A stretch of 64,000 nucleotides of DNA. Origin: Dysidea avara (taxonomy: Eukaryota). Below, in pieces: positions 24,601-27,600 of the stretch. A model generated the notes under the pieces. The model had not been told where the DNA came from. It saw only the letters and a list, made by a program, of their open reading frames with translations, and searched no databases. The stretch is taken from positions 12,151,725-12,215,724 of the forward strand of contig NC_089285.1 of assembly GCF_963678975.1 (NCBI RefSeq), given 5' to 3'. Positions within the stretch are counted from its first letter, which is position 1, and every line of letters begins with the position of its first letter. The position numbers and the translations under genes were made by a program.

Positions 24601-27600
24601 GACCCTATAACCATGTAGATAATGTATAGAGTATAATATATACCTGAAGGTCCAGAGAGCCAATATTGACTTGAAATGGGTTCTTCATGTAGGACTGTGC
24701 CAGCCTTCTAACATCTGGTGGCCATGTAGCACTACAGGTAGTAGTAGTATATGTAGTAATGAATGATCTGTTAACTATACAGCACACCCTCAGTTATCCA
24801 AACCCCAATGTTCCTTAGGAAGTAGTAAAAGTGCTCAGAAAAGTGAACCGTTTGGATAACTGAAGCTCATATATTTAATTTATATACAGAGCTTTGTTGA
24901 TATACTCTAATAGAACAGTCATTTCCAATTTGGATAAACAAGAGTAGGTTCTACTCTACAATAAAACCAGGGTGATTACTAGAACAACACTTTCTATCAT
25001 GATGTACACAAATGGCATACAATTTATATACTAGTGACCTTCACCAAGGCCTTGTTGTAATCTTAATACCTTGTCATTAATGTTTGTCGGTCAGGTCGGA
25101 TATCCAACAATATCTTCATTATCTGTGGCTCAAAGCCCATGTCTAACATCCTATCAGCTTCATCTAATACCTGTAGAGGATCATTATGATCACTAAGGAC
25201 AGGATCATAGCCACTGACCAAATAAGTGACACTCTTCATTTGTATGATGTCGTTCATGAGAAGATCATTCAGTCTACCAGGAGTGGCTGTAAGTACACAT
25301 TATGACTAGATTGTAGAAACACAAACACCTCACCTATAACTATGTCAACTCCTTTCTTAACAGTTCTAATTTGTCCACCCCTGTCTCCACCTCCATATAT
25401 ACACACACTGTAAAATATACTCAATCATCAGTTGTATGTTGAGAATGGGATGTATTGTGTGTGTTTGTGTTTGTGTGTGTGTGTGTGTGTGTGTGTGTGT
25501 GTGTGTGTGTGTGTGTGTGTGTGTGTGTGTGTGTGTGTGTGTGTGTGTGTGTGTGTGTGTGTGTGCACAATCCAGGTCACCTTTTCATATTCTTGAATGG
25601 ATACTTGTTTACTTCATTTTCTATTTGTAAAGCTAATTCACGAGTTGGAGACAGCACCAACACTGTTGGTCCTCCCCTCTCAACACGAGGCCTACACATG
25701 GTACAGTAGTCACACCATACGTGTTACACAATGTCTTACGTGATCTGTCCATCAATGTGAATAATAGCAGGTAATAGAAAAGCTAGTGTCTTCCCAGTAC
25801 CAGTCTGTGTAACAATAACAATAATGAAGGCTTGTGTTGTTTATAATAGTCATGTGTACAAGTCACTAGCAAACTTGGCATGGTTTACATGTACAATTGC
25901 ATATAGGTAACAATACACCAATATTGAAGAGATTGCTTTTAGCCACTACAATTTAATGTACATCTTATGAGTTAGAATAAAACAGTACAACTACACAAAA
26001 AGACTATACACAGTATGTAGTTGATGTTGGGCATGTGTCTTGATCAATACACAGCCACATAGGTACTACTAATAAGAAGGCTACACTCCATTAAAAATTT
26101 TTGGTCAATGTCAACAGATGAGGCTGCATGGACACACGTGACACATCACCAAAGAGCTTATGATCTCAAAGTTGTCTCACAGCTTATCTGTCTCCTCGAC
26201 ACTTGGGTATTACAGGTTTTTGCAATTGAATTCGGCGACTTTGCAATTGAATTCGTCCCGTTTGCAATTGAGTTCGTCGCTTTTGCAATTGAATTCGTCC
26301 CGTTTGCAATTGAATTCGTCGGTTTTGCAATTGAATTCGTCCCGTTTGCAATTGAATTCGTCGCTTTTGCAGTTAAATTCGTCCATAACAAGAATGGCAG
26401 CTGGAGCAAACATGAAAACATGATGTAGCAGCTGCTACAAGAACTTGTTCAAGTACAACAGTAGTAAACAACTCTTTATAAGGCAATAATTCTTCCTCTA
26501 CAGCCTCTCCAACAACATTCCAAACTCTACTCCGCCATTCGCGATGGGTGTGGTCACTCGCGAGCAAGCTAATTAACTTGTCAGACAGCTATCAACTTCG
26601 CGTACTACCAGCTTCAATTACTTTCTAGTGTCTCAAGTGTAACTCTCCATGGCATAGATAGTTCATCTCTTAATGAACGGGTTGGTTTCTTGGAGCCGTT
26701 TTGTTTATGACGAATTGTAATGCAAACGCGACGAATTCTATTGCAAAACCGACTAATTCAACTGCAAAACCGACGAATTCAATTGCAAACGGGACGAATT
26801 CAATTGCAATACCGACGAATTCAATTGCAATACCGACGAATTCAATTGCAAACGGGACGAATTCAATTGCAAAGGCGACGAATTCAATTGCAAAAACCTG
26901 TAATAATACACTGTAAACCCTATGAACTCTTGATGTAGGTCCATGCCATATGCCTACCAGACACCCCAAAAATATTCTTTCAGCAATTCCATACATTGCC
27001 TGGCTTTCCTAGCTACAAAACAATTAATTAGATTAAAAGGTTGTGCAATCACAAATGACAGTTCTACACTGTCTATACAATTGTTACCTGGGCAATCCCA
27101 ATCATATCATGACCTTGAAGGGCTATTGGCCATGCCTGACTCTATAACAAAAGCCTGCAGTATAACCAAACTTATAATAAATACATACCAACACCGGAAA
27201 CTATTTTACAGGCTTTAAATTGCGTACCTGTATTGGGGATGGTTTTGCAAATCCAGCACTGCTTATTGCCTTCAAAATATCAGCTATAGCACAAACACAT
27301 ACACACATTGTGATTATTCAAATATATTCTTCCAAAGTGAAACCAAAATAAACACAAAGACATTCAATAGTAGGAAGAAAAAGCCAAAATGCTTTGCTTA
27401 ACCAAAAACCTTCTAAGTTTTCAACCTAACTATGTGTTTGCAATCGATACATGCACATCCAATGTCATATAGGCAACTACTAATAGTGCATGTATCAACT
27501 GCTAACACAAATGGTGACTACACTTACGATAATGCTTGAAAGCTTCTTCAAATGTCCTCACTGGATTAGGGATGGGTCTATTAAGACTGCTAAGATCAGC

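Follow-up and report, generated by a model that had tools for sequence, protein, structure and literature searches.

Structure and genomic location of the element

The window analysed here is a 64,000-nt stretch of the genome of the demosponge Dysidea avara (RefSeq assembly GCF_963678975.1, contig NC_089285.1, positions 12,151,725 to 12,215,724). Within it, a non-coding element of 688 bp (window 26213-26900) takes up more than half of a ~1.3-kb intron of a gene with KH and DEAD domains (DDX43-like), and is built of two arrays of a 21-bp unit in inverted orientation. Exons with Pfam KH_1 and DEAD matches lie on the minus strand on both sides of the element, in agreement with the DDX43 intron named in the original prediction, a first reading of this DNA made from its letters. 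The features of the locus are collected in Table 1.

Table 1. Window coordinates of the element, its parts and the adjoining host exons.
Feature	Position	Strand	Remarks
Downstream host exon with Walker A motif	~25760-25801	-	DDX43-like gene; boundaries approximate
Left TA target-site duplication	26211-26212	.	TA before CAGG in 19/19 ends; flanks equal in 9/9 complete copies
Terminal hexamer CAGGTT, outer tip of left terminal inverted repeat	26213-26218	+	ACAGGTTTTTGCAATTGAATTC exact in the first nine ends
Left (A) arm, 8 tandem 21-bp units	26219-26386	+	18 conserved bases TTTGCAATTGAATTCGTC plus 3-bp variable linker
Unique internal region, non-coding	26387-26705	.	90-98% identity in eight other copies
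Right (B) arm, 9 tandem 21-bp units, inverted	26706-26894	-	Linker pattern kept between copies
Terminal hexamer, outer tip of right terminal inverted repeat (AACCTG on +)	26895-26900	-	
Right TA target-site duplication	26901-26902	.	
Upstream host exon	~27088-27135	-	KH+DEAD, DDX43-like gene; boundaries approximate

A scan of the whole window with the 18-mer TTTGCAATTGAATTCGTC, allowing up to 3 mismatches, gave 17 matches where 0.11 were expected by chance. All of them are at this element, eight on the plus strand (26219-26383) and nine on the minus strand (26709-26894), with a constant step of 21 bp. Tandem Repeats Finder reported a period of 21 with 7.9 and 8.9 copies, plus higher-order ones of 42 and 63 bp, and the inverted-repeat finder gave arms of 176 nt that are 88% complementary; the gap between the arrays is 319-325 bp. 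These results bear out the eight to nine mirrored 21-bp copies about 320 bp apart that had been described at first. An identical 21-nt stretch, TATTACAGGTTTTTGCAATTG, is present at both ends (26208-26228 on the plus strand and 26885-26905 on the minus strand). In each 21-bp unit CAATTG and GAATTC share one base, so that the overlapping palindromes noted earlier can be read directly from the sequence.

The arrays are covered by spurious repeat-encoded open reading frames (ORFs) in several frames (NSIAK.., LQLNSS.. and FAIEFV..), the first two of which had already been recognised as such, and the ORFs of the internal region are only read-through from the arrays. The element gave no match in Rfam. 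A DNA single-strand fold with a predicted energy of -218.9 kcal/mol (z = -25.5) and an RNA fold of the transcribed strand with -339.7 kcal/mol (z = -22.2) were obtained. In both, the dominant predicted structure is one long hairpin, as in the giant-hairpin potential proposed for the locus; the many small cruciforms that the original prediction suggested beside it find no support here.

The element is dispersed in the sponge genome

The window matches one 5.77-Mb contig of the ENA assembly ERZ25068803, in which sponge nuclear DNA was assembled inside a holobiont 'metagenome'. Dispersal of the element was searched for by comparing an array peptide from the window with a metagenome protein collection, in which prokaryote-style gene calls make pseudo-proteins (FAIEFV repeats) of the arrays. 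At least 120 distinct array-derived pseudo-proteins were found, and about 75 of those listed are spread over more than 70 different contigs longer than 30 kb. The pseudo-proteins that were looked up were all (11/11) on different contigs of ERZ25068803, while some others derive from further ENA and JGI samples, in which they lie on short contigs. Eight further copies of the same subfamily were compared at unrelated loci, and their internal region is 90-98% identical. The 22-nt terminus was identical in the first nine ends compared; in later copies the terminus was matched with up to 3 mismatches in 16 nt. Intact complete copies of the subfamily measure 633-854 bp, copies with nested insertions being longer, and the arms contain 5-12 units.

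The original prediction had argued for a mobile element rather than a local satellite, and had named confinement of the 21-mer to this locus, without target-site duplications (TSDs), as the outcome that would speak against it. The family is instead dispersed. Since the pseudo-proteins lie on more than 70 contigs, and the copies share their ends and carry their own TA duplications, the element represents a mobile family and not a local satellite. It is short and non-coding, has terminal inverted repeats (TIRs) and a TSD, and occurs in many homogeneous copies, as is typical of MITEs, the miniature inverted-repeat transposable elements, with sizes under ~800 bp. The family is young and was probably recently active in D. 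avara.

Three variant or longer copies were reached through their pseudo-proteins. The copy L087 (via P0047) is an old, non-coding subfamily member of 619 bp, L088 (via P0090) is a normal copy with a nested insertion of ~390 bp, and L089 (via P0103) is a decayed copy of 3.06 kb with nested duplicated repeats and no transposase ORF. The insertion in L088 (10137-10528) lies in one array, has its own 65-nt inverted repeat (91% complementary) and is also read through in two pseudo-proteins, P0058 and P0090; it is either a transposed composite copy or a second small element targeting the array. An insertion of 1131 bp is present in the B arm of the copy L005 (~3211-4341) and contains a 221-aa ORF without Pfam match. 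Inside the decayed copy L089, at 11338-12900, ~810 bp of repeat sequence is duplicated in tandem, and ZBED1-like (hAT-derived) ORFs are found ~5.5 kb downstream of it (18521-19428). The 825-kb, nuclear-size contig of L088 has, at 18383-18982, called genes that match COX3 and Proton_antipo_M (NADH dehydrogenase-type) in Pfam; these may be a nuclear copy of mitochondrial DNA. Nothing meaningful came from Pfam searches with ORFs that lie inside or beside copies (L005, 221 aa; L006, 172 aa; L086, 130 aa).

The exact 22-nt terminus had no match in JGI metagenomes, viral contigs and 185,579 bacterial and archaeal genomes. A two-unit gapped pattern was found at 77 JGI loci, none of them with three or more units or similarity in the spacer. 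Three JGI loci with multiple matches, L017 (9536-9732 of JAESGM010000226.1), L062 and L067, were rejected as unrelated, being single arrays without an inverted partner. They are intergenic 21-bp arrays on bacterial contigs (L062 judged by its motif positions), built of 5-9 copies of the unit GCATCGACTGACAATTCAATT, which has an 11-nt core and the 21-bp period in common with the sponge unit. The L017 contig is densely coding and of cyanobacterial type (flavodiiron proteins, sigma factor, subtilase), and its array edge reads TA/CAGGTC; the edge of L067, which has GC-rich flanks, shows nothing alike.

Ends of the element and target-site duplication

Alignment of the junctions showed that every copy has the arrangement TA/CAGGTTTTTGCAATTG...CAATTGCAAAAACCTG/TA (slashes mark the boundaries), and placed the ends of the window copy at 26213 and 26900 instead of 26190 and 26920, where the ends and TSDs had been expected. 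All nine complete copies (eight of the subfamily and L087) end in CAGG...CCTG. A 2-bp TA duplication fits 9 of the 9, and duplications of 1 and 3-9 bp fit none. TA immediately precedes CAGG in each of the 19 sequenced ends, and in 87 of 87 read-through pseudo-proteins the codon preceding CAG is one for L, I or V (NTA-type).

The base before TA varies among these 87 pseudo-proteins (T/C 65, A 19, G 3) and differs in 8 of 33 even among the closest copies, far more than true TIR positions do; this base therefore belongs to the flank and not to the TIR. Conservation of the flank falls outward (-3 T in 17/19 ends, -4 A in 15/19, -5 T in 14/19, -6 A in 10/19), and such graded decay indicates a target preference rather than a part of the TIR. 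The preference is palindromic, TAT[TA]ATA. The mirrored unique flanks of the original prediction are thereby reduced to the mirrored CAGGTT, the TA and the palindromic target site (TAT-TA...TA-ATA), with nothing mirrored beyond. The element thus inserts at TA, preferably within TAT[TA]ATA, and duplicates the TA, and an empty allele at the window locus would accordingly read CTTGGGTATTAATAATACACTG, with only a single TA.

A different dispersed repeat of the sponge harbours the L003 copy, and an uninterrupted paralog of that repeat, with 79.6% identity over 191 bp spanning the junction, is present in L006. This paralog aligns gap-free to the predicted L003 empty site with a single dinucleotide, and keeps the T...A bases beside it. 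The host repeat itself was seen at L003 ~2470-2620 and 3372-3420, L006 1257-1447 and L086 1683-1748, with ~80% identity between paralogs.

Other kinds of duplication were tried and rejected. A 3-bp TWA duplication (PIF/Harbinger) was ruled out because the left TTA and the right TAA are inverted and not direct, and a TTAA duplication (piggyBac) because 4 bp fits none of the nine copies; 8-9 bp likewise fits 0/9. A 9-bp direct repeat surrounds the L084 copy; it is shifted by one base, and a local ATTACTTT duplication within the target accounts for it.

Variation of the arrays and putative role of the units

Across 139 units, positions 1-18 are conserved to 83-100%, and positions 19-21 to 47-58%. 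The variable linker triplets can be used as a barcode of the individual units. In either arm all copies agree in their outermost and innermost units and units in the middle are gained or lost, with linkers GAC CCG GCT CCG ... C[A/G]T in the A arm and GCC CCG GGT ... GCG ATA in the B arm. The A and B arms are distinct, without homogenisation against each other, and unit number differs between copies as well as between the two arms of one copy. These changes fit slippage or unequal exchange inside the arrays, acting on a scaffold that goes back to a master copy.

Each TIR consists of the 6-bp tip CAGGTT and, behind it, 5-12 tandem 21-bp units, with the ~320-bp non-coding centre between the two TIRs. 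In the model that we propose, the 18 conserved bases of each unit are putative, reiterated transposase-binding sites, and the spacing of 21 bp, equal to two helical turns, would place all of them on one face of the DNA. This role is suggested by an unvarying 18-mer next to a freely varying 3-bp linker, by the strict 21-bp phase and by a first unit that starts 6 bp away from the cleaved end, and also by the fact that the outermost units are invariant while those in the middle vary. Tandem repeats in TIRs have been proposed as secondary transposase-binding sites in several superfamilies, and this is reported for Galileo (PMC3573991).

Superfamily assignment and alternative explanations

Elements of the Tc1/mariner superfamily always integrate at TA and duplicate it, while piggyBac duplicates TTAA, and hAT and P elements give 8-bp duplications (PMC3878927). 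A TA duplication in 9 of 9 complete copies, with no other length fitting, therefore indicates the Tc1/mariner superfamily, and judging from this integration signature the element would be a non-autonomous derivative of it. Since it has no coding capacity, it would have to be mobilised in trans, most likely by a Tc1/mariner-type transposase encoded elsewhere in the genome. As a whole, the explanation that we favour, and hold to be probable, is a young, multi-copy, TA-inserting element that is mobilised in trans by a Tc1/mariner transposase and whose units are putative transposase-binding sites.

Several observations weigh against this explanation. No autonomous or transposase-bearing copy was present among the 12 loci examined, and the variant and longer copies L087, L088 and L089 are all non-coding. 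A tblastn search of ~165 kb of sponge DNA with the Mos1, Tc1 and Sleeping Beauty transposases gave nothing credible. Conservation of the 18-mer among young copies could largely reflect recent common descent, and the old copy L087 has decayed in units and spacer alike, with CpG-to-TpG changes; as both decay together, any constraint on the units is putative. Furthermore, a TIR that begins with TTACAGG, next to a 2-bp duplication whose sequence varies, agrees, when counted by hand, with 4 of the first 7 complete copies (flanks TA/TA twice and TC/TC twice), and only the codon statistics and one empty site that is paralogous (80% identical, non-allelic) oppose such a model.

The TTACAGG model would place the element in a rarer superfamily with 2-bp TSDs and not in Tc1/mariner, and the T at position -3 in 17 of 19 ends agrees with it. 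However, 3 of the 7 flank pairs mismatch under this model, against matching TA in 9 of 9 copies under the other; position -3 varies in 25% of the 87 pseudo-protein ends and in 8 of the 33 closest ones; from -3 through -4 and -5 to -6 conservation weakens step by step, as it does for a target preference; and the uninterrupted paralog retains the T...A bases. We thus consider the TTACAGG model improbable. Still less probable, to the point of being hardly credible, is a true Foldback-family element mobilised by a transposase of Mutator/Phantom type or P type, as for Drosophila FB, nematode Tm1 and Galileo. Its architecture matches, with TIRs made of short tandem repeats in variable copy number around a short unique centre, and comparable TIRs are known from Tm1 (tandem repeats of 13-15 bp; PMC3169594) and Galileo (PMC3573991). 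Such elements however have TSDs of 9 bp (8-10) or 7 bp (PMC3169594, PMC3573991), whereas 3-9 bp was found in 0/9 copies and TA in 9/9, and the paralogous empty site fits a 2-bp duplication. The Foldback-type transposon of the original prediction is therefore upheld in its architecture, tandem-repeat TIRs around a short unique centre, and not in its family: 'foldback-like' is right for the former and wrong for the latter. That an inverted duplication or a palindromic satellite formed locally within the intron has, in our view, next to no probability. The 64-kb window indeed holds no further copy of the element, but at unrelated loci on different contigs dozens of others have the same termini and internal sequence, each with its own flanks and TA duplication.

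A quite possible, if somewhat unlikely, alternative accepts the TA-inserting non-autonomous transposon and differs in the meaning of the arrays, which would be neutral by-products of slippage or unequal exchange, with only the terminal ~25 bp needed for transposition. Unit number does vary freely from copy to copy and from arm to arm (5-12), the variable part is the middle of the array, as slippage predicts, and dead copies lose units at the rate of the spacer. On the other hand, neighbouring linker triplets differ while the 18-mer is near-invariant, unlike what a recent expansion of one unit would leave, and multi-unit arrays are kept in all subfamilies, even in those from other samples that are only ~60% identical at the pseudo-protein level.

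Comparison with known transposon systems

Tc1-like elements of the inverted repeat/direct repeat (IR/DR) type, such as Sleeping Beauty, Tc3, Minos and Paris, have two transposase-binding repeats per inverted repeat, one at its outer and one at its inner end, with unique sequence between them. The sponge element resembles them in the TA duplication, in inverted repeats of ~200 bp with more than one copy of a repeat, and in a tip that starts with CAG. It differs in having, instead of two repeats, 5-12 contiguous units in strict 21-bp phase, and in the lack of a transposase gene. Its arrays may be viewed as a multiplied form of what Sleeping Beauty-type elements have in their two-site IR/DR ends. 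More speculatively, and in our opinion rather unlikely, the family could be the first described Tc1/mariner lineage of foldback architecture, with the whole TIR forming a phased array of 5-12 transposase-binding sites as an extreme elaboration of IR/DR ends. If this were true, a non-coding element with such a TIR of phased binding sites could outdo its autonomous parent in the competition for transposase. The intronic copy in the gene of a DDX43-like piRNA-pathway helicase would then also give the pre-mRNA a near-perfect double-stranded RNA stem of ~190 bp, a possible substrate for editing or small-RNA pathways of the sponge.

With Stowaway-type and Tc1-mariner MITEs the element has in common its small size, the absence of coding sequence, the multiple copies, TIRs, TA duplication and AT-rich palindromic target; such MITEs are also often intronic and may carry tandem repeats, as does the Tc1-mariner MITE miDNA4 of Xenopus tropicalis listed in PMC9659126. 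The tandem units of the sponge element, however, are not in its interior and make up nearly the whole TIR (5-12 units from 6 bp inside the tip).

Drosophila FB, Tm1, Galileo and Tetris (PMC9659126) share with it the TIRs of short tandem repeats, whose copy number varies between copies and arms, the MITE-like derivatives with a small unique centre, and the strong hairpin potential. In Tm1 of Meloidogyne (Mutator/Foldback), tandem repeats of 13-15 bp make up the TIRs, and the 9-bp TSDs show no consensus (PMC3169594), and the foldback-like Galileo of the P superfamily has 7-bp TSDs (PMC3573991). The TSDs of these elements, 9 bp in Tm1 and FB or 7 bp in Galileo, have no reported fixed sequence, in contrast to the invariant 2-bp TA found here. 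Compared with Foldback in the strict sense, the sponge family thus shows tandem-repeat TIRs (5-12 units) and identical flanks of 8-9 bp in 0/9 copies, and a 7-bp duplication of the Galileo kind was likewise seen in 0/9 copies. The transposase superfamilies differ as well, as far as the TSD signature assigns the sponge element.

The insertion context, mostly TTAA (T-TA-A in 17/19 ends), is reminiscent of piggyBac. Only the central TA is duplicated, however, giving the flanks TTA/CAGG...CCTG/TAA, and the termini are CAGG and not CCC...GGG.

Significance for sponge genomes

The element is a new transposon family of a well-known kind, ordinary if neatly built, in a poorly annotated phylum. In a literature search on the D. 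avara genome assembly and its transposable elements and on sponge MITEs, we found no paper on sponge MITE or foldback-type families, and none that prints the sequence of the repeat unit. As sponge mobile elements are poorly catalogued, the exact ends, target site and consensus unit given here are useful for sponge repeat annotation. At least 120 public metagenome 'proteins' are artefacts, translated arrays of this sponge transposon that originate from prokaryotic gene calling on host contigs, and definition of the family helps to purge dozens of such FAIEFV-repeat entries from holobiont gene calls. The family is also a clean example of foldback as an architecture at which several transposon superfamilies have arrived independently, in this case with a TA signature of Tc1/mariner type. 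Of most interest is whether 5-12 phased binding sites at each end are really used by a Tc1/mariner transposase; should the units be such sites, the copies would offer a natural series of 5-12-site ends for studying site multiplicity in relation to transposition.

Other features of the window

The window is eukaryotic in character, with split exons, (TG)n microsatellites and retroelement ORFs, and a single-exon sirtuin ORF in it has 100% identity to the NCBI entry 'sirtuin-4, mitochondrial-like [Dysidea avara]'. Microsatellites of (TG)n/(CA)n with 30-80 repeats are located at 4066-4156, 19342-19414, 25456-25565, 27647-27813, 29565-29622 and 53277-53402. Several of them directly adjoin exons of the DDX43-like gene and of an alpha-mannosidase-like gene, and they yield spurious Cys-Val and His-Thr ORFs. 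Retroelement remnants were found at 31442-33467, 48753-49440 and 53765-56064, among them ORFs that by eye resemble the integrase of long terminal repeat (LTR) retrotransposons, with a DUF5641 Pfam match in the overlapping locus L001, and frameshifted reverse-transcriptase/endonuclease ORFs of the long interspersed nuclear element (LINE) type. An imperfect tandem repeat with periods of 16 and 40 bp (TACGATTCCCTCGAAT) and 76-81% matches is present at 38203-38310.

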